DNA of 64,000 nt, taken from Acholeplasma sp. CAG:878 (lineage in GTDB: Bacteria > Bacillota_I > Bacilli_A > RF39 > UBA660). Below, piece by piece: positions 12,797 to 62,617 of the stretch (position 1 is the first letter of the stretch; every line of letters starts with the position of its first letter). The stretch spans positions 11,270 to 75,269 of the forward strand of contig HF989914.1 in the NCBI GenBank assembly GCA_000432255.1, given 5' to 3'. The translations under genes and the position numbers were made by a program. Under the pieces are notes generated by a model, which saw nothing but the letters and a program-made list of their open reading frames with translations, was not told where the DNA came from and made no database searches.

Positions 12797-12798
12797 AA

Positions 12799-30273: not shown

Positions 30274-30288
30274 TTATAACACCTCTTT

Positions 30289-33358: not shown

Positions 33359-33377
33359 TTTATCACCTAAATATATT

Positions 33378-34448: not shown

Positions 34449-34501
34449 AAAATCACCCAAAATATTATATGAAAAAAATAGATAGCGTTTACTATCTATT
34501 A

Positions 34502-36525: not shown

Positions 36526-36534
36526 AAAATCCTC

Positions 36535-37089: not shown

Positions 37090-37097
37090 AAAATCAC

Positions 37098-37397: not shown

Positions 37398-37413
37398 TTT
37401 ATTTCTTCCTTCC

Positions 37414-37917: not shown

Positions 37918-37918
37918 T

Positions 37919-38872: not shown

Positions 38873-38975
38873 TCTTAATCACCCATTAACATTATACCAT
38901 TTAGTTATGTTTTTTACAAACATTTATTTTATGGTAAAAGAAAATTCTAGATTTAAACTAGAATTAATCTAATGC

Positions 38976-39095
38976 TTTAATTATAATACGATAAGCAAAA
39001 CTATATATGTTTGTAGTATCACTATATTTTTGTAGTTTGAAAGAAAATGGTGTATCATTTCCATCACATACTACTGTATTACTTATATTTGCCAT
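38976..39095 (-). CDS. Small ORF (39 aa, MANISNTVVCDGNDTPFSFKLQKYSDTTNIYRFCLSYYN) with strong SD
   Basis: An AAAGGAAG SD lies 8 nt upstream of the ATG, in the 267-bp fmt/RNB-protein intergenic region. It is unsupported by homology. Confidence 0.2.
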
Positions 39096-39139
39096 ATTTA
39101 GTCTTCCTTTTGATACGTTCATTATTTTAACAAAAAATC

Positions 39140-41140
39140 CTAAATTAGGCTCTTTTGTTTTTCCTTAGTTCTATGTTCAACTCTTCGTTGATTTGCTAGA
39201 ACAATAATTTTTTTAATTTCTTGTTGCCATTCTTCACTTTTATATTTTCTTTCGTTGATATAAAAATCATCAATCAGTTTTTGTAAAGTTAATGTAATAT
39301 AACTGTCAATAGGACTAAACAAATCTAAAAAATATGCTTGCCCACAACCATCATGACCTATATTTTCACTAGCGTAATAAGCTTTATTAGTATCTTCACA
39401 TATAATCTGATAAATTACTTTAGCCGTATTTCTATCTAATTTTCCCATCAAACTGTTTAGAACATTCATATCTCTTACAAATGAATCTTCATCTTGATGA
39501 GCTTGAACACGATAAATGCATGGTAATCCTTTTTTAGTAAAATAAGTTCCAACTGCTCTTGATACTTTAGATAAATACATTTTTTCTAATGTTTTTCCAA
39601 AATCTTTATCATCTAAATCAAAATCATTTAACAATGTATAATAACTAAATGTTACTTCTTTATTTGGTAATATAAAGTTATCATATGAATATATTTTATC
39701 TAAACTAACAATACTTCTATATATATCAAAACTTGCTATTCTACCATTATTTGATAGTTCTATTTCATATGTTATAGCAGGTCTTTTAATCATTGGTTCA
39801 AATGATAAATAATTTGTTATAATATCCATTGGAAAAATCGGATTTTCGCCTGTAAACATCTTATTTCTAAAATAAGATTCTAATTCATCATATTTTACAT
39901 AAGCACTTATATCAATAGTATGAACTTTAATTACCACTCTTCCTTTTTCATTAATATTTGCTGAATAACATTTATTAATATAAGAATTATCTAGACTAGT
40001 TATAGCAAAAGTAGGAGAATCTTCAACTCTTTCATTTAAATCCATTTGCCTTCTATATAAATATCCAAATGAAGAATAATCAGGATTTATAAAGTCTTCA
40101 ATGTTGTTTTCTTCTTGTTTACCTAAATTATAAATACTTTTTAAAATTTCCGGATATTTTTTATAGTGCTTAATTGTTTCAACAAATTCTTCGATTTTAA
40201 TTTGAATTAAAGCTTCATATTCTTTATTAAAATAAGGATGATTGACAAATAAATTAAATATTTTTTCATAATATTCTTTAGGAATATATGTAGAAGTTTG
40301 ATTTTTAAGCTCAATTAAGCAACTTTCAAAATAATAATCTAATATTACAAAAATAATGTTTTGATTATTTATAGAGATATTTAAGATATCTGGCATTAAT
40401 TCGATTAATCTTTTGATTTTATCATAATTATTTAAAGTGTTTAAAAAGTATTTGATTATATCTATTCTATTATCGTAAAAAGTAATTTCTTCATATTTAA
40501 AATCTAATATAGAATAAATTTCTTTTAATTTATTAACTAAAGCTTTTTTGTTTTGTTTTTTTAATTCTCTTCTTTTAATGATTGTTTGGTGTTTTAAACT
40601 GTTCAACAACGGTTCGATTTCTTCTTTTAATTTACTATCAGAACTACTATAAATAACCATTAATCTAATAGCAACTTGCTTTAATAAATCTAGGTCAACT
40701 AAAGTATTTAATAAATATAAATATAGTGATGTTAATTCTGATATTTTAAATGTTTCAATTTCCGTAGTTTTAGCTTTTTCCAATAAATCAGAAGATAAAG
40801 TCACTTCTTTTTTTTCATCTTTATCTACTGCTTTTCTCTCATTAAAAGAATTTATCTTTTTAGCGTGGCTTAAATATTCTTGTAAAATTTGCTTTTGAAA
40901 ATTACAAAACAAAACTGCTTCTTTTACATCTGGTTTTAATCTCAACTTTTGTTCTTCTTTATAATAATTATTTTTATTCTTTTTATATTCATTTATTGCT
41001 TTATTTAATTTTTCAATTTCTCTTTCAATTTCTTCTAAAAGTTGCCTTGAAACTTCTTTATCAAATGGTTTTAGAAAAGGATATTTTAAAACCAATTCTC
41101 TCATTTTATTAATACTAAAATTAAACTTCATATAATTCAC
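39140..41140 (-). CDS. RNB-domain (RNase II/R-like) protein with long N-terminal coiled-coil; catalytic motifs degenerate
   Basis: C-terminal half matches RNB landmarks: ...KVHTIDISAYV..., IFPMDI, CIYRVQAH, ENIGHDGCGQAYFLDLFSPIDSYITL (cf. GHFGL...YTHFTSPIRRYxDL). The acidic DxxxxxDDA block is replaced by SLDNSYINKC and RR by DS. Confidence 0.6.
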   Translation of the reverse strand: MNYMKFNFSINKMRELVLKYPFLKPFDKEVSRQLLEEIEREIEKLNKAINEYKKNKNNYYKEEQKLRLKPDVKEAVLFCNFQKQILQEYLSHAKKINSFNERKAVDKDEKKEVTLSSDLLEKAKTTEIETFKISELTSLYLYLLNTLVDLDLLKQVAIRLMVIYSSSDSKLKEEIEPLLNSLKHQTIIKRRELKKQNKKALVNKLKEIYSILDFKYEEITFYDNRIDIIKYFLNTLNNYDKIKRLIELMPDILNISINNQNIIFVILDYYFESCLIELKNQTSTYIPKEYYEKIFNLFVNHPYFNKEYEALIQIKIEEFVETIKHYKKYPEILKSIYNLGKQEENNIEDFINPDYSSFGYLYRRQMDLNERVEDSPTFAITSLDNSYINKCYSANINEKGRVVIKVHTIDISAYVKYDELESYFRNKMFTGENPIFPMDIITNYLSFEPMIKRPAITYEIELSNNGRIASFDIYRSIVSLDKIYSYDNFILPNKEVTFSYYTLLNDFDLDDKDFGKTLEKMYLSKVSRAVGTYFTKKGLPCIYRVQAHQDEDSFVRDMNVLNSLMGKLDRNTAKVIYQIICEDTNKAYYASENIGHDGCGQAYFLDLFSPIDSYITLTLQKLIDDFYINERKYKSEEWQQEIKKIIVLANQRRVEHRTKEKQKSLI

Positions 41141-41160
41141 CTACTAACTTTAAGAACACA

Positions 41161-42057
41161 CTATTTACGCATGTTATCGCTATTCATTTCGATAACATCA
41201 CATAATTGTTTAACCCTCTCAATTATTCTTTTTGCTTTCACAACTTCTTTTCCATTAAAACTTAAGTGTTGTTCTAAATCATCAATACTTAAATTAGAAG
41301 TAAAAAATGTTGGTAGTTTTTCATCCATTCTATACTGTAAAATAGGACATAATATTTCATCTCTTGACCATGCACTGATTGCTTCAGCGCCAATATCATC
41401 GATTAATAAAATTGGTGTTTTTTTGACATTTAGTAATTTATCAGAAAAATCGCTATCAAATGAACTTTTTAATTCTTGTAAAAATTCAGAAAAGAAAACG
41501 ATTGTACTTCTTACTTGTTTTTTTGCTAACTCATTTAACATGGCAGTTATTAAATATGATTTACCACATCCAAAATTACCATATAAATATAATCCTTTTG
41601 AAACATTTGGATAGTTATTTTTAAAATCATTTAACCATCTAATTGTATCTTTTCTTTTAAGATATTTTCCATCTATATTACTCCAAGATGCATTACTAGC
41701 ACCTACTGGAGTGTTATAATATTTAACATATTTTAAATGATTATTTTCTTTATTTTTATTATTTGTATAATGACATGCCTTATATCTAAAGACTAATGTA
41801 TTATTAACAACTTTAGGTAAGTATGTATAACCTCTTATTTTATTCAAACATTCCATTAATCCGCTACAATTTAAACAATTATTATATTCTATAGTACTTT
41901 CTTCTAAATTAGATGTATGCTTCATCATTTCTTCTTTAGGTAGATTAAATTTATTAACGAAATTTTTAAATTGTTCATTTTCTAAACTTTTTTCATATTC
42001 GTAAGAAAGTTCCGTTTTTTTATTATATCCATTAGTAAGTTCGCTTGCTTTAATCAT
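41161..42057 (-). CDS. dnaI: Primosomal helicase loader DnaI
   Basis: N-terminal Zn-binding CLNCSGLMEC, AAA+ Walker A GNFGCGKSYL, Walker B LLIDDIG. Confidence 0.85.
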   Translation of the reverse strand: MIKASELTNGYNKKTELSYEYEKSLENEQFKNFVNKFNLPKEEMMKHTSNLEESTIEYNNCLNCSGLMECLNKIRGYTYLPKVVNNTLVFRYKACHYTNNKNKENNHLKYVKYYNTPVGASNASWSNIDGKYLKRKDTIRWLNDFKNNYPNVSKGLYLYGNFGCGKSYLITAMLNELAKKQVRSTIVFFSEFLQELKSSFDSDFSDKLLNVKKTPILLIDDIGAEAISAWSRDEILCPILQYRMDEKLPTFFTSNLSIDDLEQHLSFNGKEVVKAKRIIERVKQLCDVIEMNSDNMRK

Positions 42058-43294
42058 TAATACCTACTCCTAATTCTTTTTCAAAAGCTCTCAATTCTTC
42101 TTCACTCATCAAATCTGATTTTATTTCTTTATCTAACCAATCGGGTAATTTTTTAGATTGTTGTTTTATTTTTTTCTTATTTTCACCTTTGGCAATATTA
42201 ATAGCATCGGCTACCGTATTTATATTACATCTTATCCATTGTGAGGCTATTTTTTCAACATATGCTTTATTTAATTTATTATTATTTATTCTTAAAACAT
42301 AATCTATTAAAACATTTACAACTCCTGGTTTTAGATTTAAATCGATTAACAAATATTCGATTAATTTTAAATCAGCTCTAGTTGGTTCACAACCACCATT
42401 TTTGCTCGTTAAAAATTCTTTTGGACTTGCTTCTTCTAATTCTTTTATATATAAATCTAATTTACTTCCTCCATTAGTATTACTACGCCAAGCATAAGGT
42501 TGTTCTCTATCAACAATCGCTGGAACATGATTTTTATTTTCAAACTTATAGTAATTTCTACAATTTGTTTTTAATACATCAGTTTCAATTTTTTTATTAC
42601 AACCTAGGGAATCTTCAATAATCGTAGTCATCGTTTTGTTATCATAACCATAAACTAAAGCTAATTGATAAATTAACATTCTTGTGTTGCTATCAATGCT
42701 TTTATAATCAATCAACTCACTTGGAATATTTCCTAATACTTCTCTTAAGTCGATTGTTGGCTCAAAATCTAATCCTAAATGTTTTACTTTGACAATATTT
42801 TTATTATTAATTCTTTTAGTTTGTGTAAAACTAAATACATCTCTAAATGTTTTACTTATATCTTTATATTCACTTAAATTGATATTTGGAATACTAAATT
42901 TATTAACAATGTTTTCATATGCTTTTTTACCTACATTGTTAAATAAAGATGTATCTAAAATTGGATTATTTATAAACTCATAAGCAGTAAGTGGTGAGTA
43001 TAATTCATATATATATTCATTTAAATCACCTTTTTTTACATATGTTTTAAGTAAACCTAAGGCTTCTAATTTTTCTCTTGCTTTACATATATCTTCTAAT
43101 TTTAATTGCATAGTATTTACTATATCATAATGATTAATATTTTCATTACCAATAAATCCCCATAAAGTAACATATAAATTAAAAGCAATGCTTCCCATTA
43201 TTGGTTGATATAAAAGGGATAACACTTCTCTATTCTGATCATTTAAAAATGTATGATTGATTACTATAAAACTATCTAGTGGTAGTACATCCAT
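42050..43294 (-). CDS. dnaB: Replication initiation/membrane attachment protein DnaB (Firmicutes DnaB/DnaD family)
   Basis: Conserved dnaB-dnaI pairing with an 8-nt overlap; DnaB/DnaD-like C-terminal region. Confidence 0.7.
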   Translation of the reverse strand: MDVLPLDSFIVINHTFLNDQNREVLSLLYQPIMGSIAFNLYVTLWGFIGNENINHYDIVNTMQLKLEDICKAREKLEALGLLKTYVKKGDLNEYIYELYSPLTAYEFINNPILDTSLFNNVGKKAYENIVNKFSIPNINLSEYKDISKTFRDVFSFTQTKRINNKNIVKVKHLGLDFEPTIDLREVLGNIPSELIDYKSIDSNTRMLIYQLALVYGYDNKTMTTIIEDSLGCNKKIETDVLKTNCRNYYKFENKNHVPAIVDREQPYAWRSNTNGGSKLDLYIKELEEASPKEFLTSKNGGCEPTRADLKLIEYLLIDLNLKPGVVNVLIDYVLRINNNKLNKAYVEKIASQWIRCNINTVADAINIAKGENKKKIKQQSKKLPDWLDKEIKSDLMSEEELRAFEKELGVGIND

Positions 43295-43347
43295 GTTTTT
43301 CCCTCCCTTTCAATATAATAACATATTTTAGAAATAAAAAAAAGAAA

Positions 43348-43635
43348 TTAATCTAAAATATTTATAATTTCTTCTTTTAATTTTTCGTCTTTAACTAAAT
43401 TTAATATTAATTTTTTTTTATTGTAAATTTTTAACTTTTCTTCATACATTAATAGTTTGTCAATAGTATCTTTTAATGACTTAAAAACAGCATTTCTACT
43501 TACATTATCATTTAAAGCGATTTCTTGTAAGGTTAGATTGTCAAAATAATATGCTTTAAAATATTCTTGTTGTTTTAAAGTTAAAAGATTATAATAACAA
43601 TCAAAAAGATTTGTGTATAGTATTATATCTTCCAT
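43348..43635 (-). CDS. ylxM: UPF0122 protein YlxM (SRP-associated putative DNA-binding protein)
   Basis: ...LTLKQQEYFKAYYFDNLTLQEIALNDNVSRNAVFKSLKDT... is the YlxM helix-turn-helix signature. Confidence 0.75.
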   Translation of the reverse strand: MEDIILYTNLFDCYYNLLTLKQQEYFKAYYFDNLTLQEIALNDNVSRNAVFKSLKDTIDKLLMYEEKLKIYNKKKLILNLVKDEKLKEEIINILD

Positions 43636-43636
43636 A

Positions 43637-43936
43637 CTATATAAATAAGCTAACTAATAGTAGTATTCCAAACAACATATAAACATATGTCATATATTTT
43701 CTTTTATATACTTTTTGATTATTAAATGCTAGTACAAACATCATAACACTAATTAAAACTTCACATATTATAAATAAATCTTTATTAAAAATAGATAAAA
43801 TACCGAAACTAATTATAAAAATAATTAAAGCCATTTGAAATAATAGTGTTATTTGATAAAATTCTTTTAAATCGATTACTTTTCTAGTTTTCATCATTAC
43901 CTCCAAATAATCCATAGATATATTTTTCAATATCAA
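43637..43936 (-). CDS. Hypothetical small membrane protein
   Basis: ORF only; overlaps the ftsY 3' end by 53 nt, so the start is probably internal. Confidence 0.35.
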   Translation of the reverse strand: MILKNISMDYLEVMMKTRKVIDLKEFYQITLLFQMALIIFIISFGILSIFNKDLFIICEVLISVMMFVLAFNNQKVYKRKYMTYVYMLFGILLLVSLFI

Positions 43937-44855
43937 ATACTTTTAAATCTTCTTCTTTTTCTCCTAAACCGATAAACTTAACTGGAATGCCGACTTTTTC
44001 TTTAATTGCAAGTACAATACCACCTTTAGCAGTTCCATCTAGTTTTGTTAATACAATTCCTGTTATATTTGTGATTTCTTTAAAACTTTTGGCTTGACTT
44101 ATACCATTTTGACCACTAGTAGCGTCGATTACTAACAAAACTTCATGAGGGGCGTTTGGAATAATTTTTCCAATTACTTTATTAATCTTTTCTAATTCAT
44201 TCATTAAATTAACTTTATTTTGAAGTCTTCCAGCTGTATCGATTAAAACAACATCATAATTTTCATTTTTAGCTTTTTCTAATCCATCATATATAACACT
44301 AGCAGCATCTTTTGTATCTTTATAACAAACTTCACAATTCGTTTTAATACCCCATTCTTTTATTTGTTCTACTGCTCCTGCTCTAAATGTATCTCCAGCT
44401 ACTAATAATACTTTTTTTCCTTCTTTTTTTAATTTATAAGCAATTTTACCGATTGTAGTAGTTTTACCTACTCCATTAACACCAACAAATAGTATTACAG
44501 TTGGTCCTTCCTTACTATAATTTATCTTATTTACAATGATATCATTATTAACATAAATAACAAACATTTCATCAATTATAATATCCATTAAATCTTTGCT
44601 ATCAACTATATTTTCTTTTTTTACTCTTCTTTTTAATTTATCAATTAAATCCATAACTGTCTCAACACCGATATCGGCTGTTATGAAAATTTCTTCTAGT
44701 TCGTCAAAGTATTCATCACTTACTTTTTTATATTTACCATTTAAAATTGATAATTTTGATTTAAATTCTTTGCTTGTTTTTTCTAAACCTGTTTTATAAT
44801 CTTCTAACTCTTCTTTGTTGCTAAATAAATTTTTAAATTTTTTAAATATTTGCAT
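43884..44855 (-). CDS. ftsY: Signal recognition particle receptor FtsY (NG domain only)
   Basis: GVNGVGKTTTIGK (G1), DTAGR (G3), TKLDGTAKGG (G4). It lacks the N-terminal acidic A domain, as in many Firmicutes. Confidence 0.9.
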   Translation of the reverse strand: MQIFKKFKNLFSNKEELEDYKTGLEKTSKEFKSKLSILNGKYKKVSDEYFDELEEIFITADIGVETVMDLIDKLKRRVKKENIVDSKDLMDIIIDEMFVIYVNNDIIVNKINYSKEGPTVILFVGVNGVGKTTTIGKIAYKLKKEGKKVLLVAGDTFRAGAVEQIKEWGIKTNCEVCYKDTKDAASVIYDGLEKAKNENYDVVLIDTAGRLQNKVNLMNELEKINKVIGKIIPNAPHEVLLVIDATSGQNGISQAKSFKEITNITGIVLTKLDGTAKGGIVLAIKEKVGIPVKFIGLGEKEEDLKVFDIEKYIYGLFGGNDEN

Positions 44856-44943
44856 GCTTAATCACCTATATTTATTATACTATTTTTAATCTTACTTTAC
44901 AATTATTTTTTTTGTGTTATAATAAGAAACCGTGAGGTGACTT

Positions 44944-45765
44944 ATGTTTAAAAAATTATTAAAACTAACAAAAGATATTACTGAATTATATCAAAAATTA
45001 GGTTACTTAGAATGTCAAGGAAGAAAAAATAGTCAAGAATGGCATTTATCAAAAGCTGAACTTAAAGAAAAATTAGAAGAAGAAAAGAAATTTTACGAAA
45101 ATCTTGAAGCAATCAGTACCGAAGAATTAGATGAAATAAAATGTGATGATATTGTAATGGCAAGAATTAAAAGTAAACTTACAAAAGTTCAAATAAAGCA
45201 AATGGAAGATGAAATGTTAACAATTGCAGAAGAAAACGGCAATTTACCTTATATTAAATCAGTTCTTTTTAAAGTAGGTAAACTTAATAATTGCATTGAT
45301 AATGATATTACTATGAATGCTTTAGTTTATTTAAACGAATACTTACCTTATATAGGTTCAAAGGATTTAGCGATTAGTTTTATGTATGAAAAATTTAGAA
45401 TTGCTGCTGCTAGTATAGATGATTGTGAAAATTTATTGTTTGACGCAAATTTTGAACTACCAAATACTGCTTATACAACATGTCAAACATGTGGTAGATT
45501 ATTAGGTCTTGATGATAATACTATAAATGAAGCAATTGATTCTAATTGTTTAAACCTTTTAACTAGTTTACTTAATATAAATATAAAAGAAGATACATTT
45601 GAAGAAGTAAAACCATATTATATGTGTCAAATTAAAGCAAGAGTTACTTTACTTAGTGATGAAGGACTAAATCAACTTTCCAATTTATTAGAAGAAAGTA
45701 ATAATACTATAATAAGTTGTTTAATGGAAAAAACAATAAAAGAACTTAAAGGAAAAACTTACTAA
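44944..45765 (+). CDS. Hypothetical protein
   Basis: 273-aa ORF with a GGTG SD (gtgaggtgacttATG); no family recognised; followed by a hairpin terminator. Confidence 0.55.
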   Translation: MFKKLLKLTKDITELYQKLGYLECQGRKNSQEWHLSKAELKEKLEEEKKFYENLEAISTEELDEIKCDDIVMARIKSKLTKVQIKQMEDEMLTIAEENGNLPYIKSVLFKVGKLNNCIDNDITMNALVYLNEYLPYIGSKDLAISFMYEKFRIAAASIDDCENLLFDANFELPNTAYTTCQTCGRLLGLDDNTINEAIDSNCLNLLTSLLNINIKEDTFEEVKPYYMCQIKARVTLLSDEGLNQLSNLLEESNNTIISCLMEKTIKELKGKTY

Positions 45766-45770
45766 AACAC

Positions 45771-45793
45771 CTTAGTGGTGTTTTTACTTTACA
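45771..45793 (+). terminator. Intrinsic terminator
   Basis: AACACC-ttagt-GGTGTT followed by TTTT. Confidence 0.4.
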
Positions 45794-45851
45794 AATTTAC
45801 AAAAACAATGTATAATTAATTAGTCGCAAAACTTTTAAGAAAGGAGGATTC

Positions 45852-47495
45852 ATGGAAAATAAATTTACTAAAGTATTTGCTTTAGGTGGTTTGGGTGAAG
45901 TTGGAAAAAATATGTATTGCATTATGTATGACAAAGAAATCATTATTACTGATGCAGGTATTACTTTTCCACAAGAGATTAAGGGTGTTGATTATATAAT
46001 TCCAGATTTCACATTTTTAAAGAAAAATGAAAAATATATTAAAGCTCTATTTATAACCCATGGTCATGAGGATCATATAGGAGCGATACCTTTTCTTTTA
46101 AATATGGTAAACATTCCTCGTGTATATGCTCCAAACCAAGCAGTGGGTCTAATTAGAAAAAAATTAGAAGAAAGAAATATTCAATATAAAAATTTATTTG
46201 TTTATACTGAAAAAAATCATATTAAATTTAAAAATATTAGTGTTGAATTTTTTATGACAACTCACTCTATACCAGATTCACATGGTATTGTAGTTCATAC
46301 TCCAGATGGTACTATTGTAACAACGGGTGATTTTAAATTTGACTTAACACCAATTGGTCCAATGGCTAATTTACATAAAATGGCCGAAGTTGGAAAAAAA
46401 GGTGTTACTCTACTTTTAAGTGATAGTACTAATGCTTTAAATAGTGGTTTTTCAGCTAGTGAGTCAAAAGTTGATGAAGCGTTAGCTGGTATTTTTAGAA
46501 CTCATAGTGGACGTATTATAATTGCAACATTTGCTTCTAATATATACAGATTAAAACATATAGTTGATACTTGCCAAAGAAACGGTAGAAAAATCGCTGT
46601 ATTTGGACGTAGCATGGATACTAATATTGAAATATCTATTAAAGATGGTTATATTAAAAATAAAGGTATTTTTATAACACCTGAAGAAGCAAATCATTTA
46701 CCAAATAATAAAGTATGCTTGTTATGTACTGGCTCTCAAGGTGAACCACTTGCTGCTTTATCAAGAATTGCTAATGGTAGTCATAGACAAATAAAATTAC
46801 AAGCAGATGATGTAGTTGTATTTTCATCATCAGCTATTCCTGGTAATGCTATTAGTATATCAAGAACAATCAACAAATTATATTTAAAAGGTGTTAAAGT
46901 ATATACCAATACACTATTAAGTGATATTCATACATCTGGTCATGGAAGTCAAGAAGAATTAAAGTTAATGTTGCGACTAATTAAACCAAAATATTTCATG
47001 CCATTTCACGGTGAATATCGTATGCTTAAAAAACATGCTGACCTTGCTACTTTATGTGGCGTACCTAAGGAAAACACATTTGTTTTAGGTAATGGCGAAG
47101 TTTTAACTATTAAAAAAGGTATTGTTAAAAAACAAGGTACTGTTCCTGCTGGTGATATATATGTCGATGGTAATAAAATTGGTGATGTTGATAATCTAAT
47201 TATGAAAGAAAGAAAAATAATGTCTAATGATGGTATTGTTATTGTAATTATTAATACTAAAAATAATAAATTAATAACAAAACCAAGCATTGCTACTCGT
47301 GGTTTTGTAGTTGTCAATGATAATCAAGAATTACTACATGAACTTGAAAATTATGTTGAAAAAGTTATAATAAATAGTAAAAACAATGATATCAAACCAT
47401 TAGTTATTAATGAACTATCAGATTATATATTTACTAAAACTGGAAGAAAACCAATTATTATGCCTGTAATAATGGAAATTAAAAAAACACATTAA
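45852..47495 (+). CDS. rnj: Ribonuclease J
   Basis: Metallo-beta-lactamase HGHEDHIGA motif, beta-CASP and C-terminal domains; AAGGAGG SD. Confidence 0.9.
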   Translation: MENKFTKVFALGGLGEVGKNMYCIMYDKEIIITDAGITFPQEIKGVDYIIPDFTFLKKNEKYIKALFITHGHEDHIGAIPFLLNMVNIPRVYAPNQAVGLIRKKLEERNIQYKNLFVYTEKNHIKFKNISVEFFMTTHSIPDSHGIVVHTPDGTIVTTGDFKFDLTPIGPMANLHKMAEVGKKGVTLLLSDSTNALNSGFSASESKVDEALAGIFRTHSGRIIIATFASNIYRLKHIVDTCQRNGRKIAVFGRSMDTNIEISIKDGYIKNKGIFITPEEANHLPNNKVCLLCTGSQGEPLAALSRIANGSHRQIKLQADDVVVFSSSAIPGNAISISRTINKLYLKGVKVYTNTLLSDIHTSGHGSQEELKLMLRLIKPKYFMPFHGEYRMLKKHADLATLCGVPKENTFVLGNGEVLTIKKGIVKKQGTVPAGDIYVDGNKIGDVDNLIMKERKIMSNDGIVIVIINTKNNKLITKPSIATRGFVVVNDNQELLHELENYVEKVIINSKNNDIKPLVINELSDYIFTKTGRKPIIMPVIMEIKKTH

Positions 47496-48310
47496 TTGTG
47501 TTTTTTTTGACAACAAGGACAATAATAAGTTCCTCTTCCACCTACTCTTATTTTTAAAATATCAGAATTACAATTTGGACAATTCTTTTTTGTATGCACT
47601 AGTAATTCATTTTGAAATCTTCCATGAACTCCTTCACTTGATTCATAACTTTTTATAGTAGTACCACCTAATTCAATAGCTTTTTCTAATACAATTTTTG
47701 AATTATCTATAATTGCTTGTAATTCTTTTTCATTTAATTCACATGCTTTAGTTAAAGGATTAATTTTACTTAAAAAAAGTACCTCATCAGCATATATATT
47801 ACCTAATCCTGTAATTATTTGTTGATCTAAAATAACTGTTTTAATTGGTGTTTTCTTATTTTTGTATTTTTCTTTTAAATATTTAACATTTAAATTATCA
47901 TCAAATGGTTCATATCCCAATTCATTTAATGGTTTATTATTATAAACTTCATCTTTTTTATATAGATACATTTTTCCAAATTTTCTTGTATCTTGATATC
48001 TTAATTCTTCATCTTCAAATTTAAATACAACATGTTGGTGTTTAGATAAAGGTTCATTTGTTTTTATATAAAACTTTCCTTCCATTCTAAGATGACTTAA
48101 TAAATAATAATCATTTAATTCAAACATTAACCATTTTCCTCTTCTTTTAATATCGATTATTGTTTGTTCCTTTAAATTATTAATAAATTCTTCTACTTTG
48201 GGGTAAGCAATTATATTGTTATAATACACTTGTACATCAATTATCTTTTTATTTAAAATTTGTTTTTTTAGTGTTTCTTTTACTGTTTCTACTTCTGGTA
48301 ATTCTGGCAT
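47492..48310 (-). CDS. mutM: Formamidopyrimidine-DNA glycosylase
   Basis: MPELPEVETV N-terminus (catalytic Pro2), C-terminal zinc finger CPNC...CPCC. Confidence 0.9.
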   Translation of the reverse strand: MPELPEVETVKETLKKQILNKKIIDVQVYYNNIIAYPKVEEFINNLKEQTIIDIKRRGKWLMFELNDYYLLSHLRMEGKFYIKTNEPLSKHQHVVFKFEDEELRYQDTRKFGKMYLYKKDEVYNNKPLNELGYEPFDDNLNVKYLKEKYKNKKTPIKTVILDQQIITGLGNIYADEVLFLSKINPLTKACELNEKELQAIIDNSKIVLEKAIELGGTTIKSYESSEGVHGRFQNELLVHTKKNCPNCNSDILKIRVGGRGTYYCPCCQKKHN

Positions 48311-48311
48311 A

Positions 48312-49034
48312 CTAATCCTCCAATACTACTTCTTCTAAATAATACTTTTCTTTAATTATTTTATCTATATTTGAAATTAATGTGTGATTTACTTTACTAA
48401 AATATAATCTTATTTGTTTTTCTTTGTTACCTAATTTTAATGTGTCAGCTAAAATTGTACCCATATTTATTAATGGTATTTTACTATCTAAATAATCATT
48501 CAATTCTTTTTCAATAATTGGATAATGTGTACATCCTAGTATTAACACATCGACTTTATCTTTAAAAATATTCATATATTTTGGTATTATATCTGTTAGA
48601 GATTGTTCATTTTCAATATATGGTACAAAATCATTACATGACCTAGCTATTATTTTTTTATTTATTCTTTTTTCAAATGTTTTACTCTTAATCGTCATAT
48701 TTGTTCCTATTAGTCCTATAGTTTCATAATTAGAATTGTTTATATAATCAATAGTAGGACTTATAACATCATATATTTTAGTGTCTTTGGGTAATTTATC
48801 AAATACATTAGAACTTATAGTTCCACACGCAACTATAATTAAATCAACATCTTTTTTGTTTAAAAAGTTAATTATTTTATTTGATAGTTTTAATAATTCT
48901 TCTTTTGATTTTGTTCCATAAGGTGCGTTTATATTATCTCCAAAATAATAATATTTATTATTTGGGTATTTTTTTATTAATTCTGCTAAAACTGTTAATC
49001 CACCTATTCCTGAGTCAAAAATACCTATTTTCAT
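48312..49034 (-). CDS. murI: Glutamate racemase
   Basis: IGIFDSGIGGLTV, VACGTIS, GCTHYP racemase motifs. Confidence 0.9.
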   Translation of the reverse strand: MKIGIFDSGIGGLTVLAELIKKYPNNKYYYFGDNINAPYGTKSKEELLKLSNKIINFLNKKDVDLIIVACGTISSNVFDKLPKDTKIYDVISPTIDYINNSNYETIGLIGTNMTIKSKTFEKRINKKIIARSCNDFVPYIENEQSLTDIIPKYMNIFKDKVDVLILGCTHYPIIEKELNDYLDSKIPLINMGTILADTLKLGNKEKQIRLYFSKVNHTLISNIDKIIKEKYYLEEVVLED

Positions 49035-49059
49035 AAAAACCTCCTAATTAATTATATCA

Positions 49060-49090
49060 CATTAAAGAAAAAAACTGATTATTTTCAGTT
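49060..49090 (-). terminator. Intrinsic terminator downstream of the prepilin-type gene fragment
   Basis: Minus strand: AACTGA-aaataa-TCAGTT followed by TTTTTT. Confidence 0.4.
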
Positions 49091-49104
49091 TTTTATTTTG
49101 ATTT

Positions 49105-50532
49105 TTATTTTACAACATAAGGATTAGCACTTGTTCCACTTCCAGACACAAGCGTATCAGCACTTAGGTTCAAAACTGGGCGGACGCCACGAGTAGCGCT
49201 GACATAATCGTAGTTAGTAGTACCATCACTATTAGCATACCAAGCATTAGCATTAGCACTATTATACATATTACTGAAGCCGGCGGGGCTCATAGTCCAA
49301 TAACTACTTCCACTATTCAAGTAATATGGATAACTACGCCCTCTTACATAATACCATCCTCCAGCATAGATTGTCTCATCATATGTTACTAATCCTACTT
49401 TTGATGTTACTACTCCTTTTCCATTTCCATCTGTTGTACATTCAAATGTTGGTGTATATGATTCTTTTGCTGTCAATTTTGTAGAACCTGTTTTTAATTT
49501 AAAATTAGTTCCATCATATGCAACTCTTGCAGCCTCACAGAAATAGTTTCCACTTACTACTTTACTTGCATTATCTCCTGTTATATTGGTAGTAAACCAA
49601 TTATCAACTACCGTTTTAAGTTCTGAATTTGTATAATACATTTTATCATATGTTTTGTATGTACTATTAAATTTATTGTATCCAATACTTGATGTTAACA
49701 TTATTCTAATTGTTCCATCTTCATTAACTCTTAATATTCTATAGTCTTTTCCTGCAAATTTTATGTAGTTATTTGTTGGATTTCCTCTGAAATAATATGT
49801 TTTATTACCCCCCAATGTTTGGGCATATAATCCGCTTTGGTCACTTGTTTGCCATGAAGTTGTCCAAGTTTGGTCAGTTGCTATTACATTAGAGTTATTT
49901 GTTCCTAATATTGCACTTTTTAAGCCAACTGTATTACTAACTGTTATTTTTACAGTTGCTTCTGCAGTTTTTCCATTTGTTCCTGTTGCTGTACATTTTA
50001 CTGTATGGTCTCCTGCATCTAATGAACTTACATTTTCTACTTCACATGTAACTTGTCCGCCAGTTTTTCCAAATTTTACATTGAAGCAATTTTTGATTTT
50101 TACATCTGTTCCTTTATTTACTGTTACTGCTGCTTCTTTCGCGCTAATAGTAGGTTGAAATTCATCAACTCCATCTTTTTCGCATGTTACTTTACTTGTT
50201 ATTTTGTCATTTTCATCAACATTTGAACAAGTATAGTTTTTCATTGATGCGAATTTTACTCCGACAATTTTGATTCCTCTTTCATCACTATTTTTTGAAT
50301 TATCTATTGTCCATGTCCCCATGTATGGATGTTCTCCTGCTATTGTTAAATCTGCTACTTCTCCTGATAGATTAACTGTTCCATCAGTTGAATTTAATAA
50401 TCCTTCTGCATATTTTGTTCTTACTGTATCGATTACTCCATAGCAACTATTTTCTAATGACTTAATTTTTGCATGGTTCCTCGTTCTTTCCATCTTTAGC
50501 GCAAGTAACTTTACTATTAATGGTTCCATCAC
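49105..50532 (-). pseudogene. 3' portion of a prepilin-type paralog: second copy of the head module + Ig-like segment + shared C-terminal domain. It has no signal peptide and is frame-disrupted relative to 50462..50902.
   Basis: Homology to 1417..2613 begins at ...AKIKSLENSCYGVIDTVRTKYAEGLLN, exactly at the stop of the upstream ORF but in another frame. There is no class III signal peptide of its own. The C-terminal 200 aa are paralogous to gene 1417..2613 (MSPAGF...GVRPVLNLSADTLVSGSGTSANPYVV). Confidence 0.5.
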
Positions 50533-50902
50533 TATTTACATTTGTACATGTATAATCTTTCATTGATGCAAATTTTACATCTTTTATTTTTATTCCTCGA
50601 TTATCTGGATTACTTGAATTATCAATCTCCCATATTCCAGCGATTGGTTGTTCTCCCGATACTGTTATTTCTGTTACATTTCCTTTTGATTTTACTGTTC
50701 CATCTTCTGAATTTAATAATCCTTCGGCATACTTTGTTCTTACCCCATCAATTACTTCATAACAACTATTTTCTATTGACTTAATTTTTTCATTTTCGAT
50801 TACATTAAATATTATTGGAGTAGCTATTAAGGCTATTATTGCTAGTACTATAATGACTGCTAATAATTCTATTAATGTAAATCCATTCTTTTTATTTTTC
50901 AT
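50462..50902 (-). CDS. Prepilin-type protein, N-terminal module only (146 aa); forms a frame-shifted tandem arrangement with 49105..50532
   Basis: MKNKKNG|FTLIELLAVIIVLAIIALI has a prepilin motif, then one head module (IENEKIKSIENSCYEVID...KVTC). It ends AKDGKNEEPCKN* where homology continues in the +1 frame. Confidence 0.6.
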   Translation of the reverse strand: MKNKKNGFTLIELLAVIIVLAIIALIATPIIFNVIENEKIKSIENSCYEVIDGVRTKYAEGLLNSEDGTVKSKGNVTEITVSGEQPIAGIWEIDNSSNPDNRGIKIKDVKFASMKDYTCTNVNSDGTINSKVTCAKDGKNEEPCKN

Positions 50903-50984
50903 TTTTACTTTCCTCTCTACTAATTATTTTTATACTTTAATCTCATCTTATTATATTTTTTATACCACTTCCTTTTATTAAGCA

Positions 50985-51125
50985 ACAAAAAAACACGAAA
51001 GAAACCTAGGCAATAAACCTAGTTTCTCCGTGTTTATTTATATGGTTAGTTAAATAACCCCCCATGTGTTAACTCATTGTATACATTATTTAACATAACC
51101 ATATCAATCACTCCTACTATTTAAA
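50985..51125 (-). promoter_or_regulatory. Conserved upstream element, copy B: promoter (TTGAAA-17-TATTAT), strong SD, 18-codon uORF, 17-bp inverted repeat, 15-bp-stem terminator
   Basis: Minus strand: TTGAAAaatgatttattatgtgtTATTATttaaatagtAGGAGTGattgatATGGTTATGTTAAATAATGTA...TTATTTAACTAACCATATAAATAAACACGGAGAAACTAGGtttattgCCTAGGTTTCTTTCGTGTTTTTTT. It shares the ATGGTTATGTTAAATA / TATTTAACTAACCATAT inverted repeat with copy A. Confidence 0.5.
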
Positions 51126-51156
51126 TAATAACACATAATAAATCATTTTTCAAGTA

Positions 51157-53655
51157 TTATTCTATGTCAATATTATCAATAATACCTTCAATTTGAAGCA
51201 TTCTATTATCAATATCATCTAACGATATATCTAATATTTCTTCTTCTATTTCTTTATTTTCTTTTGTTTTTTTAGTCAATTCTACTAATTCAAAACAATC
51301 TTTAATTCCTTTTTTATTAATAACTGTACCGGTTGAATATCTATCTACAATTGGCAATTCTGTTACTTTTAAATGTTTAATTTCATCAGTTAATATTAAA
51401 ATATTTTTAGTATTTACAAACGTTTTTAATATTTTGTATGGATTAGTTTTAACATCCCTAACTAATAAAATACCTTTTCTTGCTCTTGTGGATAATTCAA
51501 ATTCATTTAATTTAATTCTTTTTCCTGTACCATTTTCAGTAATTACAGTTATATAATCAGCACTATTAAATACTAAACCACTTCTAACTTCATCATTTTT
51601 CAAATTAATCGACTTAACGCCACTTGCTTTAATTCCAACAGTTGATACTTCCGATGTATTGTATCTTAAGGCATAACCATTTTTAGTTGTTACAAATATG
51701 TTATTGCCATCTACATTAGATACGCTTACCAATTTGTCATGATTTTTCAAATTCATACAACACATTGGTTTAGAATATCTATTAACTTTAAATTCATTTA
51801 AACTTGTTCTTTTTACAAAACCATCTTTGCTAAATAAAGTTATTAAAGTGTTGTTAAACTCATATACCGGCATACTTGCTATAATGTTTTCATCACTATT
51901 AAGTTTTACAATATTAGATATATGTTTACCTAATTCTTTCCACTTTAATTCTGGTATTTCATATACTGGTAAATATATATAATTACCTAAATCAGTAAAT
52001 AATAAAATTGTATTTAATGTATTAATTTCATATAATCCAATTAAATAATCTCCATCTTTTACTAGTGTGTCTTCATCTTTATTATAACTTCTAAGTGATA
52101 CTCTTTTAACATAACCTTCCTTAGTTATTGCTACTACGACGTCATCTTTTGGTAACATTTTAGTCGCATCTATTTTTATATCTTCGATTTCATCTAACAC
52201 TTCTGTTTTTCTATCTACGGCATAAAGTTTTTTAATTTCTCTTAATTCTTCTTTCATAACACTTTTCAAAACATCTACATTAGATAAAATAGAATTTAAT
52301 TTATCAACAATTATTTTTAAATTGTTAGCTTCTTCAATTAATTCAGAAACATCTGTATTAGTTAATTTATAAAGTTGTAATTCGACAATTGCTTTAGCTT
52401 GCTTTTCACTAAAATCATAGTTATTAACTAAATTAACTTCAGCATCACTTTTATTTTTACTACTTCTAATCGTTTTAATAACTTCATCTAAAATACTTAA
52501 AGCCTTAATTAATCCTTCAACAATATGTATTCTTGCTTTTGCGTGTTCTAAATCAAATTGTGTTCGTTTTAATATAACTTCCTTTTGATGAGCTATATAA
52601 GCGTCTAATATTGATAATATTCCTAAAACTACTGGTCTATGATTTACTATAGCAACCATATTATAGTTATAAGATATTTGCATATCAGTATTTTTCAATA
52701 AATAATTTACTATTAAATTTGTATCAGCATCTTTTTTTAAGTCGATTACTATTGTTTCTGGATTTTCTAAATCTGATTCATCTCTTACTTCTAAAATTCC
52801 TTCTATTTTTTTATCAATTCTAATTTCATCTATTTTTTTAACTAATAAACTTTTATTAACATCAAATGGAATTTCAGTTATTATTATTTGGTCTTTTCCT
52901 TTGTTTTTAACTATTTCATACTTTGATTTAACTATTACTTTTCCTTTTCCTGTTTTGAAAGCATCGATTATTCCTTGTTTTCCACAAACAATTCCTCCGG
53001 TTGGAAAATCTGGTCCTTTAATAATGTCTAAAATAGTATCTAAATAGCAATTAGGACTATCTATTCTTTTTATTGTAGCATCTATTACTTCACCTAAATT
53101 GTGAGGAGGAATGTTAGTTGCATATCCAGCACTTATTCCATTTGCTCCATTTACTAATAAATTGGGAAATCTTGCTGGTAAGACAGTTGGTTCGAATAAT
53201 GTGTCATCATAGTTATATGTCATTACAACTGTATCTTTATTTATGTCTTTTAATAATTCATTGCTTATTCTACCTAATCTTGCTTCGGTATAACGATAAG
53301 CGGCTGGACTATCCCCATCCATTGAACCATTATTACCATGCATATCGATATATAAAGTGTTTTGTTTCCACCATTGACTCATTCTTACCATTGCATCATA
53401 TATTGAAGCATCTCCATGTGGGTGGTAGTGTCCCATAACATCTCCAACGGTTTTTGCACATTTACGATATGGTTTATCATATGTGTTTTTACCTTGATAC
53501 ATTGTATATAAGATTCTTCTTTGAACAGGTTTTAAGCCATCCCTTACATCTGGTAAGGCTCTATCTTGAATAATTTCTTTAGCATATCTTGAAAACCTAT
53601 CCCCCATTATATCTTCTAGTGAATAATCATAAATTCTTTTGATTATATCTTGCAT
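51157..53655 (-). CDS. parC: DNA topoisomerase IV subunit A (type IIA topoisomerase A subunit; ParC rather than GyrA because there is no GyrA-box)
   Basis: LPDVRDGLKPVQRRILY, active-site Tyr region AAYRYTEARL; the C-terminal beta-pinwheel lacks a QRRGGKG GyrA box. It lies downstream of parE in the same operon and not in the dnaA context. Confidence 0.8.
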   Translation of the reverse strand: MQDIIKRIYDYSLEDIMGDRFSRYAKEIIQDRALPDVRDGLKPVQRRILYTMYQGKNTYDKPYRKCAKTVGDVMGHYHPHGDASIYDAMVRMSQWWKQNTLYIDMHGNNGSMDGDSPAAYRYTEARLGRISNELLKDINKDTVVMTYNYDDTLFEPTVLPARFPNLLVNGANGISAGYATNIPPHNLGEVIDATIKRIDSPNCYLDTILDIIKGPDFPTGGIVCGKQGIIDAFKTGKGKVIVKSKYEIVKNKGKDQIIITEIPFDVNKSLLVKKIDEIRIDKKIEGILEVRDESDLENPETIVIDLKKDADTNLIVNYLLKNTDMQISYNYNMVAIVNHRPVVLGILSILDAYIAHQKEVILKRTQFDLEHAKARIHIVEGLIKALSILDEVIKTIRSSKNKSDAEVNLVNNYDFSEKQAKAIVELQLYKLTNTDVSELIEEANNLKIIVDKLNSILSNVDVLKSVMKEELREIKKLYAVDRKTEVLDEIEDIKIDATKMLPKDDVVVAITKEGYVKRVSLRSYNKDEDTLVKDGDYLIGLYEINTLNTILLFTDLGNYIYLPVYEIPELKWKELGKHISNIVKLNSDENIIASMPVYEFNNTLITLFSKDGFVKRTSLNEFKVNRYSKPMCCMNLKNHDKLVSVSNVDGNNIFVTTKNGYALRYNTSEVSTVGIKASGVKSINLKNDEVRSGLVFNSADYITVITENGTGKRIKLNEFELSTRARKGILLVRDVKTNPYKILKTFVNTKNILILTDEIKHLKVTELPIVDRYSTGTVINKKGIKDCFELVELTKKTKENKEIEEEILDISLDDIDNRMLQIEGIIDNIDIE

Positions 53656-56161: not shown

Positions 56162-56524
56162 TTATTCTACCTCTTTAACATCAACTTCGTACCTAAGCCC
56201 ATCATTAGTATTTGTAACAGTAATTATAGTATCGTCACTAAATTTTTTACTACTTATTGGACTAATAACATCTTTTGTTATATATCCTTTTTCTTTTAAA
56301 TCACCTAGCGTTATTGTATAGCTTTGACTTAAATCCGGCAAAAGTTCTGGATTATCAGCAAAATAATTTTTTGTATTCTCAACAATACTATTAATTTGAA
56401 TATTATATGCGTTTTTTCTATTTTCTTTTAAACTTCTATCAACTATCGTAACAACAATCGTTGCAATAATACCAAGTAGTACAACCACTCCTAATAGTTC
56501 AACTAAAGTAAATCCTTTTTTCAT
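56162..56524 (-). CDS. ComGC/PulG-like major pseudopilin (prepilin-type N-terminus), orphan
   Basis: MKKG|FTLVELLGVVVLLGIIATIVV has a class III signal with Glu+5; 120 aa. It overlaps the murC stop by 4 nt. No comGA/GB or prepilin peptidase is present in the window. Confidence 0.7.
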   Translation of the reverse strand: MKKGFTLVELLGVVVLLGIIATIVVTIVDRSLKENRKNAYNIQINSIVENTKNYFADNPELLPDLSQSYTITLGDLKEKGYITKDVISPISSKKFSDDTIITVTNTNDGLRYEVDVKEVE

Positions 56525-62430: not shown

Positions 62431-62617
62431 TTAATCACCATTAAATTATATTATCATTTTATATTAAAAATTACTATTAACATTTCTTCATTGTAAGAAA
62501 TCGTATTTTTGATTTATAGTATATTTCAACTAAAAACTTCATTTAATAATGAAGCTTAGAGTATTTTTATTTAAAAATTTTATAAGTATTTAAAAATAAA
62601 ATATATATAAATCAATT

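Follow-up and report, generated by a model that had tools for sequence, protein, structure and literature searches.

A split modular type IV pilin gene in an uncultured human-gut bacterium, probably decapitated by recombination with a paralog

Main finding

The window analysed here, a 64,000-nucleotide stretch of DNA from an uncultured human-gut bacterium (listed in the source records as Acholeplasma sp. or Candidatus Faecisoma), contains a pilin locus in which two homologous head modules follow one another in different reading frames. We posit, with somewhat more confidence than doubt, that a recent one-ended recombination between paralogs decapitated a modular type IV pilin at this site, leaving a 146-aa gene for the pilin module only and a dead 3' remnant. 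The locus most likely reflects a single, ordinary disruption of a gene, or possibly a mistake in assembly, and not a programmed switching system.

Layout of the locus

The locus comprises a complete short prepilin gene (ORF1) and a long open frame behind it (ORF2), with the following parts:

50462..50902, minus strand: ORF1, prepilin of 146 aa with one head module, C-terminal end ...KVTCAKDGKNEEPCKN and stop
50902..50882, minus strand: leader peptide of ORF1, MKNKKNG
50881..50792, minus strand: alpha-1 helix of ORF1
50791..50474, minus strand: head A and linker KDGKNEEP of ORF1
3' of the joint, minus strand: out-of-frame tail of ORF1, CKN and stop
50173..50472, minus strand: head module B, in the +1 frame; its own start codon, signal peptide and alpha-1 helix are lacking
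49933..50172, minus strand: linker and Ig-like segment
49105..49932, minus strand: C-terminal domain of about 270 aa and stop codon

ORF1 has a class III signal peptide (MKNKKNG followed by FTLIELLAVIIVLAIIALIATPIIF): the leader is short, basic and Gly-terminated, positions +1 and +5 are Phe and Glu, and the alpha-1 helix is hydrophobic over about 20 residues. It matches the prepilin N-terminus profiles PF07963 (E=2.4e-8) and TIGR02532 (E=6.7e-8). The description of ORF1 in the earlier note, made from the sequence alone, as a signal peptide and TM helix with one head is confirmed. Natural stand-alone pilins are 132-151 aa long and end 2 residues past the last Cys, and ORF1 covers the whole module. 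The window locus does not encode a modular type IV pilin in the sense of PMC8179133, since ORF1 ends 12 residues past the pilin module and the extra domains lie in another frame. An exact look-up of the ORF1 product returned no record, and the ten ORFs scanned at 53666-63896 included no prepilin peptidase, assembly ATPase or platform protein.

Head B starts at 50472 and runs AKIKSLENSCYGVIDTVRTKYAEGLLN...KVTCEKD, at a frame offset of 370 nt (370 mod 3 = 1). From there the frame continues for 455 codons to the stop at 49105, and ORF2 is open over 475 codons in all, in a genome of 26% GC. Self-BLASTN of the locus aligned nt 110-365 with nt 429-684 (77.5% identity, E=3.8e-40), a similarity between heads A and B far beyond chance. 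The earlier claim of a second head in the +1 frame, followed by an Ig-like segment and a C-terminal domain as far as 49105, holds. The offset between the copies, 319 nt, is no multiple of 3, hence the shifted frame. The C-terminal domain resembles a C-type-lectin-like module of enlarged size and probably forms the ligand-binding part.

Origin of the two heads

Each head has its own counterpart among intact genes. Head A is the standard head of a 576-586-aa protein, with 100% identity at the protein level in no fewer than 14 clusters; in relatives the gene for this 576-aa pilin occupies a locus of its own (uvrC-rnf, pilin, 414aa-patatin), and L013 is an intact example. Head B is 100% identical to the heads of intact 487-491-aa orthologs (P0005, P0006, P0010, P0012, P0013). 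From head B on, the first 600 nt, covering head B and the Ig segment, show 0 nucleotide differences to L001 and L016, against 98.6% identity for the flanking murI-fpg genes in the same comparison. With dS of 0.60 and dN/dS of 0.42 between them, heads A and B are, by this measure of divergence, old functional paralogs and no fresh duplicate.

This bears directly on the internal tandem duplication that the earlier note had read from the locus, in which the head would have been copied in situ and the copies would then have diverged. The heads are indeed adjacent, in the same orientation and homologous, but the divergence between them coexists with perfect matches of B to the orthologous heads and of A to the head of another paralog, whose linker codons also stand at the joint. 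Duplication in situ is effectively refuted as the mechanism. Loss of the DNA between tandem genes, with the 576-aa gene directly upstream of the 491-aa gene, was also considered and discarded, given the separate rnf...patatin position of the 576-aa gene.

In relatives the ortholog is unbroken, with one head in an ORF of 484-507 aa, and in 12 full-length related loci the counterparts of ORF2 are complete genes with leader, start codon and signal peptide. Two heads occur in the window alone, at one of 23 loci with the head motif; the 22 related pilin loci lack the joint, and the two-ORF arrangement, which the earlier note had allowed might be shared by relatives, was not found among them. One split gene (L024) was left out of account, as it comes from a hybrid assembly with several other split genes, and a search of genome contigs based on P0005 yielded, for the most part, loci that were remote or of no relevance. 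The intact orthologs P0005, L013 and L034 have the plan of a modular type IV pilin. Recent pseudogenisation is consequently the best fit among the three options offered in the earlier note, as intact relatives have a single head, the two heads are unique to the window and both sides are identical to intact genes.

The joint and the proposed mechanism

Two features mark the boundary between the parental sequences:

50475..50822, minus strand: patch of 576-aa-paralog sequence, consisting of the alpha-1 helix end, head A and five linker codons
50474..50475, minus strand: non-homologous joint between donor and recipient, with 1 nt microhomology, a net insertion of 319 nt and a +1 frame shift

Head A and the five linker codons (KNEEP) match L013 with 100% nucleotide identity right up to the joint, where donor ...GAGGAACC(A)/GATGAA meets recipient ...CGAAA(A)/TGCAAAAATT (slash, joint). 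At the other end, diagnostic sites are of the 491/parC type at 50837 and 50831 and of the 576 type at 50822, 50819, 50790 and 50776, placing the switch from anchor to patch between 50831 and 50822; this chimerism of ORF1 is based on just two plus four sites, with 7-8 sequences per group. The overlap sequence consists of the two parental sequences abutted, and neither side of the joint has an indel relative to the intact references, so that a single-base sequencing error is ruled out as the cause of the frame break. The GC-rich linker GGAAAGAACGAGGAACC, to which the earlier note had drawn attention, is present but is no special joint sequence, being the native head-to-Ig linker KDGKNEEP of the 576-aa paralog. 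The joint pattern did not occur in GTDB representative genomes or JGI metagenome contigs. One homologous anchor and one illegitimate joint thus flank heterologous donor DNA, the arrangement by which one-ended illegitimate recombination is recognised.

We propose that the ancestral gene was a single ORF of about 490 aa encoding a pilin module, an Ig-like stalk and a C-type-lectin-like module, into which some 350 nt were copied from the 576-aa paralog, carried by relatives at the rnf...patatin locus. A 3' end in the conserved N-terminal region would have invaded this paralog, or incoming DNA from it, copied head A and 15 nt of linker, failed to re-anneal and been sealed by end-joining, the whole amounting to an aborted head-swap. 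The left end of the patch lies within alpha-1 helix coding sequence common to all paralogs. Its right end abuts, over 1 nt and without homology, the base at which the resident head module becomes paralog-specific; head B is retained, and the 319 nt gained push it into the +1 frame. The native leader and promoter would now drive the 146-aa pilin alone, a full pilin module with no adhesin. The 455-codon remainder, with neither start codon nor signal peptide nor alpha-1 helix, could presumably not become a pilin; it shows no decay so far.

Assembly as an alternative

Several observations weigh against the recombination reading. The joint is read from assembled sequence; the 100% identity of both flanks to intact genes is equally expected from an artefact; contigs in other assemblies break within these genes; and the window mixes three contexts (parC 5' flank, rnf-type head A, murI-linked head B and tail), a combination that would take more than a single event to arise in a real genome. 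The main competitor, albeit one we think unlikely, is an error of assembly, scaffolding or gap closing that fused two contigs, each of which ended within a paralogous pilin gene. The contigs would be parC...head A...linker and head B...murI, and the genome would hold two or three intact pilins and no chimera.

The 5' region of these genes, comprising about 300 nt of leader and about 110 nt of coding sequence, is repeated in many copies. Many public contigs terminate in the genes: the first bases of L002, L003 and L026 fall some 200-290 nt before the pilin start codon, in the shared leader or immediately 5' of it, L027-L031 start in the murI-linked pilin, and L037-L040 end in the parC-linked one. 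L028 and L029 start 9 nt upstream of the position of the window's joint and L030 starts 10 nt downstream of it. Five long contigs, long-read ones among them as judged by contig names, show parC, then an intact 488-506-aa pilin, then 165aa-391aa-HD and not murI. A joint seen nowhere else, with perfect matches to intact genes on both sides, is likewise what an artefact would give. Against this, assemblers of the de Bruijn or overlap type depend on k-mers or overlaps in common, and the sides share 1 nt, which means that joint-spanning reads must have existed or that an unusual N-free join was made. The joint contains no Ns, the two parts lie on the same strand and in gene order, and the left boundary of the patch falls in homologous sequence, as a biological one-ended event predicts.

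Frameshifting and phase variation

If the joint were crossed by a programmed +1 ribosomal frameshift, or bridged by phase variation, the product would be a two-headed pilin of about 597 aa. The overlap reads TGC AAA AAT TAA, and tRNA-Lys on AAA could re-pair one base downstream; G-tracts elsewhere in the gene also vary in length (see below). Nevertheless, 50462..50540 contains no repeat tract, the A5 run and the linker match those of intact genes, no rare or stop codon directly follows the slippery codon, no Shine-Dalgarno-like stimulator was seen by eye just upstream, and no relative conserves the arrangement. The matches of three protein searches included no two-headed pilin, and those of 599-705 aa that were inspected (P0075, P0078) have tandem C-domains and are not pilins. 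This option, the second raised by the earlier note, is to be regarded as highly improbable.

Paralogs, shared motifs and the silent-cassette reading

A second family member lies near the start of the window, and a GC-rich motif is common to both loci:

1417..2613, minus strand: intact 398-aa paralog, a prepilin with one head and the same C-terminal domain but no Ig segment
2614..2968: diverged leader cassette copy belonging to the 398-aa paralog
49276..49293, minus strand: conserved GC-rich 18-mer ATGAGCCCCGCCGGCTTC (MSPAGF), containing GCCGGC

The 18-mer occurs exactly twice in the window (1585-1602 and 49276-49293; chance expectation, none), and the joint probability of the MSPAGF codons given the amino acids is about 8e-7 under window codon usage. 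GCCGGC has two occurrences in the 64 kb, each inside this motif; enrichment of CCGG itself was rejected, with 11 sites observed against about 17 expected in the window. The near-identical stretches from which ongoing gene conversion had been suggested are short, the longest exact match between the two loci being 28 nt and the overall identity 72-81%. No recent conversion between the two window loci is indicated, and the 18-mer is kept in orthologs too; the head of the 398-aa paralog is 100% identical to the heads of many 398-aa orthologs.

Exchange among paralogs of the family more widely is nevertheless real, and to this extent the general idea of the earlier note is borne out. Each genome has at least 4-5 paralogs, all preceded by the same leader cassette and dispersed between housekeeping genes, and heads and flanks reassort between loci across the population. 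Mosaic heads were seen in P0003 and P0122, although some short-read contigs may be chimeric and the direction and frequency of exchange cannot be read from assemblies. Hypervariable head shuffling as a general rule was dismissed, heads being mostly faithful to their own paralog or upstream flank. The paralogs sit at synteny breakpoints. Elsewhere in the window, a 189-aa sugar-transferase ORF gave no exact match on look-up; it is called at 180 aa in relatives, and its true start is probably downstream.

A two-part system resembling pilE/pilS, with ORF1 as the expressed short pilin and promoterless ORF2 as a donor cassette kept for conversion, would draw on this reassortment, on ORF1 being a complete pilin module, on the length of ORF2 despite the low GC content and on G-rich and CCGG-containing motifs near these genes that loosely recall the Neisseria system. 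We nonetheless consider it quite improbable. ORF2 is orthologous to complete genes, with promoter and signal peptide, at the same murI-linked position; the decapitated form is limited to the window locus; paralogs elsewhere all have their own leader and N-terminus; and the window holds none of the further promoterless head copies that the earlier note had proposed to look for. The recency of the event (0/600 nt differ) accounts for ORF2 still being open.

Leader cassette and poly-G tracts

Upstream of ORF1 lies the shared 5' leader cassette, and a second G-tract lies in the coding sequence:

51125..51153, minus strand: promoter-like site TTGAAA-17-TATTAT with TG, at the start of the cassette (consensus scan)
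51046..51102, minus strand: tiny leader ORF MVMLNNVYNELTHGGLFN and stop, with a poly-G tract, in a region that folds as a hairpin
50995..51034, minus strand: intrinsic-terminator-like hairpin and U-run, between leader ORF and pilin start (terminator scan)
49808..49813, minus strand: poly-G tract in coding sequence, ACATTGGGGGGTAAT, G6, in frame with ORF2

An equivalent TTGAAA(A) element is kept upstream of paralogs in L001 and L014-L021, consistent with a putative promoter function. The terminator-like core (51022..51006; RNA fold z=-3.3) is kept in all paralog leaders, and hairpins are conserved in the consensus fold of the leader, with covariation in 1 of 39 pairs, i.e. almost none. Rfam assigned no family to either leader region, the single match being a chance miRNA hit (E=0.11). 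The leader tract is G6 in the window (51058..63), G7 in L015, G9 in 11 loci and G10 in L017.

The coding-sequence tract also varies between assemblies (G6/G7/G8), a feature of contingency loci, although it lies away from the joint. In L025, L028 and L030, from three samples, it is G7 and the gene is split in two. The 3' ORF has 240 aa; the 5' ORF has 259 aa in L025 and is truncated where the contig stops in L028 and L030. These assemblies could represent one clonal lineage. P0076 implies G8, and other alleles have an interrupted GGGAGG.

In a broader interpretation, the locus would be a failed intermediate of active diversification that swaps heads and flanks among the fully expressed paralogs, exchange proceeding via the shared 5' leader and N-terminal cassette and expression being toggled by the poly-G tracts of the leader ORF and the coding sequence. 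We regard this as rather doubtful. If true, it would represent pilus-adhesin variation without silent cassettes in small-genome gut Bacilli, one that also drives chromosomal rearrangements.

Significance

The finding itself is minor, being a broken adhesin-pilin gene in a single strain, or else a joint made in assembly, and should be flagged as such in annotation. Its context is of more use: an abundant uncultured human-gut lineage has a whole family of modular type IV pilins whose tips are lectin-like. The conserved leader cassette shared by this family, its positions at synteny breakpoints and its repeated inactivation in metagenomes make it a candidate model for variation of commensal surface adhesins. 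These pilin loci are also hotspots for contig breaks and chimeric assemblies, which is a warning for work on such genomes.

Comparison with known systems

PilB, with a vWA module, and PilC, with a lectin module, are modular type IV pilins of Streptococcus sanguinis (Raynaud et al. 2021, PMC8179133), and more than 1,200 such pilins in 264 architectures have been reported (PMC8179133). Like PilB and PilC, the intact orthologs combine a class III signal peptide, a small pilin module, a short linker and extra non-pilin modules, which probably bind ligands. Their modules differ, comprising an Ig-like stalk and an enlarged C-type-lectin-like domain rather than vWA or ConA-like ones, with an FGE-sulfatase-like module in place of the C-type-lectin-like one in the 576-aa paralog; the window copy differs further in being broken, with a non-modular ORF1. 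[quoted passage not shown]

In the pilE/pilS system of Neisseria, promoterless, N-terminally truncated silent copies are stable one-way donors (PMC13321361; PMC3899283), and pilin variation requires CCGG cleavage and a G4 element (PMC13321361). Common to both systems are several related pilins per genome and patchwork exchange bounded by conserved parts, non-functional outcomes included. Here, in contrast, the paralogs seen in relatives are all complete with their own leader, the single decapitated copy is strain-specific, and the junction is non-homologous and out of frame, with no clean conversion tract.

The poly-G tract of Neisseria pilC is a homopolymeric-tract contingency locus. The present gene resembles it in having a G-tract inside coding sequence whose length, in frame at G6, depends on the assembly, and departs from contingency loci in that this tract is not at the joint.

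Homology-facilitated illegitimate recombination, reportedly described by de Vries and Wackernagel in 2002 (reference 50 of PMC8116780), is one-ended recombination resolved by end-joining. It typically uses microhomology of a few bases, more than the 1 nt found here, and the donor in the present case may be an endogenous paralog instead of foreign DNA. The likeness lies in the structure of the tract, of which one side is homologous and the other almost devoid of homology, with a heterologous tail beside the anchor.

Structure of the frame-broken pilin locus

The pilin gene upstream of murI in the window is broken into two open reading frames, ORF1 and ORF2, which carry head modules of different types (A and B).

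Prepilin-type features in the window
50902..50462, minus strand: ORF1, a 146-aa protein with a prepilin N-terminus, one head module (A) and the ending ...KVTCAKDGKNEEPCKN*
from 50472, minus strand, +1 frame: second head module (B), AKIKSLENSCYG...KVTCEKD
2613..1417, minus strand: intact third paralog, 398 aa
56524..56162, minus strand: small unrelated prepilin, 120 aa, overlapping the murC end and preceding parE

ORF1 opens with a textbook prepilin N-terminus (MKNKKNG/FTLIELL...; PF07963, E=2.4e-8; TIGR02532, E=6.7e-8). The earlier note had described a signal peptide and one head followed by a second head in the +1 frame, which is correct as judged by the sequence and by alignment of both copies within the locus (77.5% identity, E=3.8e-40). 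The two heads are offset by 319 nt, a length not divisible by three. Head B leads into an Ig-like stretch and then a ~270-aa C-terminal domain that ends with the stop at 49105, and ORF2 as a whole lacks a start codon, signal peptide and alpha-1 helix.

Searched against proteins, ORF2 matched dozens of clusters at 81–91% identity, all 484–498 aa long and each combining a prepilin N-terminus with a single head. Their source records, from human-gut metagenomes, are named 'Acholeplasma sp.' or 'Candidatus Faecisoma', and their genomic contexts place a single-ORF pilin gene immediately upstream of murI-fpg-rnj, the same position as in the window. Tandem heads occurred in only one of the 23 loci with the head-start motif, namely the window itself, and there was no two-headed pilin among the inspected protein matches, those of 599–705 aa being proteins other than pilins in which the C-terminal domain occurs twice. 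Two such surface proteins (P0075 and P0078; 600–705 aa) carry the domain as a tandem pair behind ordinary N-terminal anchors, which makes it a portable module in this lineage. Another broken pilin paralog, of the 576-aa type, was seen in locus L004, where an in-frame TGA (640..643) replaces the GGA (Gly) of ...KFGKTGG... and splits the gene into 175 and 391 aa; the stop is either a true nonsense mutation or an error in sequencing.

Origin of the first head module and of the frame break

Head A belongs to a 576-aa paralog as its usual head, matched at 100% protein identity by at least 14 clusters. On long contigs this paralog occupies a separate locus, with uvrC-rnf... upstream and 414aa-patatin downstream, and it ends in a different tail domain with a weak FGE-sulfatase-like match. 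The best match of ORF1 (P0121, 97% identical) runs on through ...KDGKNEEPDEVQPTITAK... into an Ig-like segment, and on metagenome contig L013 an intact 576-aa prepilin has ORF1 as its first 143 residues, its DNA being that of the window, with no difference, from ~50830 to the last base before the joint (between 50475 and 50474). The GC-rich linker previously noted at the junction is present but is no special joint sequence; head A and linker are continuous in the intact 576-aa paralog, making it the donor's native linker. Divergence between heads A and B (dS 0.60, dN/dS 0.42) rules out a recent local duplication of the head module and marks the two as long-separated functional paralogs.

The donor sequence around the joint is ...GAGGAACCA/GATGAA and that of the resident gene ...ATCGAAAA/TGCAAAAATT, with one base only in common, while the window reads GAGGAACCATGCAAAAATT. 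Upstream it follows the 576-aa gene base for base, and downstream it shows 0 differences over 600 nt to the intact 491-aa genes L001 and L016, as against 1.4% in the adjoining murI-fpg genes. Comparison with the intact reference genes revealed no indel on either side, which excludes a single-base sequencing error as the cause of the frame break; the frame is lost because of the position at which the two pieces were joined. Paralog-diagnostic nucleotides are of the 491/parC type at 50837 and 50831 and of the 576 type from 50822 onward, placing the left end of the patch within the shared alpha-1 coding sequence.

To judge from these sequences, the chimera most likely originated in a one-ended recombination event. 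Within the conserved N-terminal region, a 3' end would have paired either with the 576-aa paralog itself or with imported DNA of a relative, and copied head A plus 15 nt of the linker; finding no homology for its return, the copied end would then have been sealed onto the first paralog-specific base of the resident gene, giving a 319-nt insertion with head B retained but out of frame. The suggestion of a recent pseudogenisation fits best, through inter-paralog patching instead of the tandem duplication originally envisaged, and the intactness of ORF2 would reflect the recency of the event rather than selection. Stand-alone pilins of relatives (132–151 aa) stop two residues past the last Cys, and since ORF1 amounts to such a natural short pilin with a 10-residue tail, its product could still be processed and assembled.

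That the joint was made by assembly, and is not a genuine chimera, we consider unlikely, if a real chance. The 5' part of the pilin genes is a multi-copy repeat at which public assemblies often break: L002 and L003 start 200–275 nt upstream of the start codon, L027–L031 start within the murI-linked pilin (L028 and L029 at a point 9 nt upstream of where the window has its joint), and L037–L040 end within the parC-linked pilin. The window also mixes three contexts: its 5' flank is that of parC and matches L032 at 99% identity over 12 kb, its first head is of the rnf type, and its body is the murI-linked one, because on five long contigs parC leads through an intact 488–506-aa pilin to 165aa-391aa-HD, not to murI. 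Assemblers, however, require shared k-mers, whereas the two sides of the joint have a single base in common, and the joint is free of Ns and coherent in strand and gene order.

Silent cassettes, frameshifting and gene conversion

A silent cassette of the pilE/pilS kind is not supported, the 'silent' part being orthologous to complete genes and every paralog having a leader of its own; no further promoterless head copies were found in the 64-kb window. Programmed frameshifting or phase variation at the joint is likewise not supported, there being no repeat at that point and no conservation of the arrangement in relatives. The AAA-AAT context at the joint has no pause codon, and inspection of the sequence just upstream of the overlap revealed no Shine-Dalgarno-like stimulator.

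Recent gene conversion between this locus and 1417..2613, proposed from near-identical stretches, is not evident: exact matches reach 28 nt at most, and the 18-mer ATGAGCCCCGCCGGCTTC (MSPAGF; 1585..1602 and 49276..49293) that the two window paralogs share without a difference also occurs unchanged in orthologs (L001–L003, L014, L016). Its codons are each rare here (joint probability ~8e-7), and the two GCCGGC sites of the window both fall within its copies; CCGG sites overall are not enriched there. GC codons tend to be more frequent over the last ~150 nt of these pilin genes.

Leader cassette and poly-G tracts

Leader and poly-G features
51153..50903 and 2968..2614, minus strand: leader cassette, ~300 nt (also L001 3700–4000; L014–L021 5700–6000)
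49808..49813: poly-G in the coding sequence of the 491-type pilin, in frame as G6 (also L025 ~3729, L028 ~671, L030 ~650)

The same leader cassette precedes every long pilin paralog, whatever gene stands upstream, and runs from a promoter-like site through a tiny ORF (MVMLNNVYNELTHGG(G)LF[NR]), which also folds as a hairpin, and a strong terminator to the pilin ribosome-binding site and start. It matched no Rfam family, and may be an attenuator-type leader. Its poly-G (51058..51063), absent from the leader of the 398-aa paralog, differs in length between assemblies: the window has G6, L015 G7, 11 loci G9 and L017 G10. G7 or G10 alters the ending of the tiny ORF, and G8 or G11, read by hand, would carry translation into the terminator stem.

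Three assemblies from different samples (L025, L028, L030) have G7 in the coding sequence, and there the pilin gene falls into two ORFs. The 3' one has 240 aa; the 5' one has 259 aa in L025 and is truncated by the end of the contig in L028 and L030. P0076 implies G8, and other alleles read GGGAGG or TGGAAG. This tract may act as an on/off switch, or it may mark a clonal lineage of pseudogenes. Across the whole 64 kb (26.2% GC), the leader and coding-sequence tracts of this pilin locus are the only G-runs of at least six on the gene strand.

Genomic context and the organism

Heads go with the upstream flank (rnf-A, dut-B, rpoC-D, parC-C or parC-B) and tails with the downstream flank, murI being found with heads B, C and D, which suggests recombination within genes or chimeric contigs. 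The paralogs are located at synteny breakpoints (window 50903..51157 versus L001, L014, L015, L025 and L032–L036), with parC, dut, rpoC, HisKA-RR, rnf or, judged by eye, a sigma-factor-like ORF upstream and murI, cotE, 165aa-391aa-HD, patatin or rpsL downstream. Either the paralogs themselves bring about chromosomal rearrangements, or the short-read contigs are chimeras at these points. A separate presence/absence polymorphism concerns a 223-aa methyltransferase gene between the trigger-factor and M23-peptidase genes in L032–L036 (L032 3177–3919), absent from the window (~62604..62606) and L037.

The lineage is common in gut metagenomes, as evidenced by the exact 120-aa prepilin (56162..56524) in 1089 blocks of the public index. 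ORFs resembling, by eye only, a sporulation sigma factor and SpoIIGA (2969..4478, minus strand), a Pfam CotE match in L015 (7619–8152), and murC and murI conflict with the 'Acholeplasma' and Mycoplasmatota labels of the source records; the organism has the appearance of a walled member of the Bacilli with a small genome and, possibly, the capacity to form spores.

Comparison with known pilins

In our view a gene of a known kind has undergone an ordinary disruption peculiar to this strain, with some chance left to an assembly joint. The AlphaFold model of the intact ortholog P0005 (pLDDT 74.9) comprises an alpha-1 helix, a beta-sheet head, an Ig-like domain and a larger alpha/beta domain, with Foldseek matches to Ig-like adhesin stalk domains only. 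As modelled, the intact protein fits the concept of a 'modular pilin', whose pilin module displays a binding module grafted onto it (PMC8179133).
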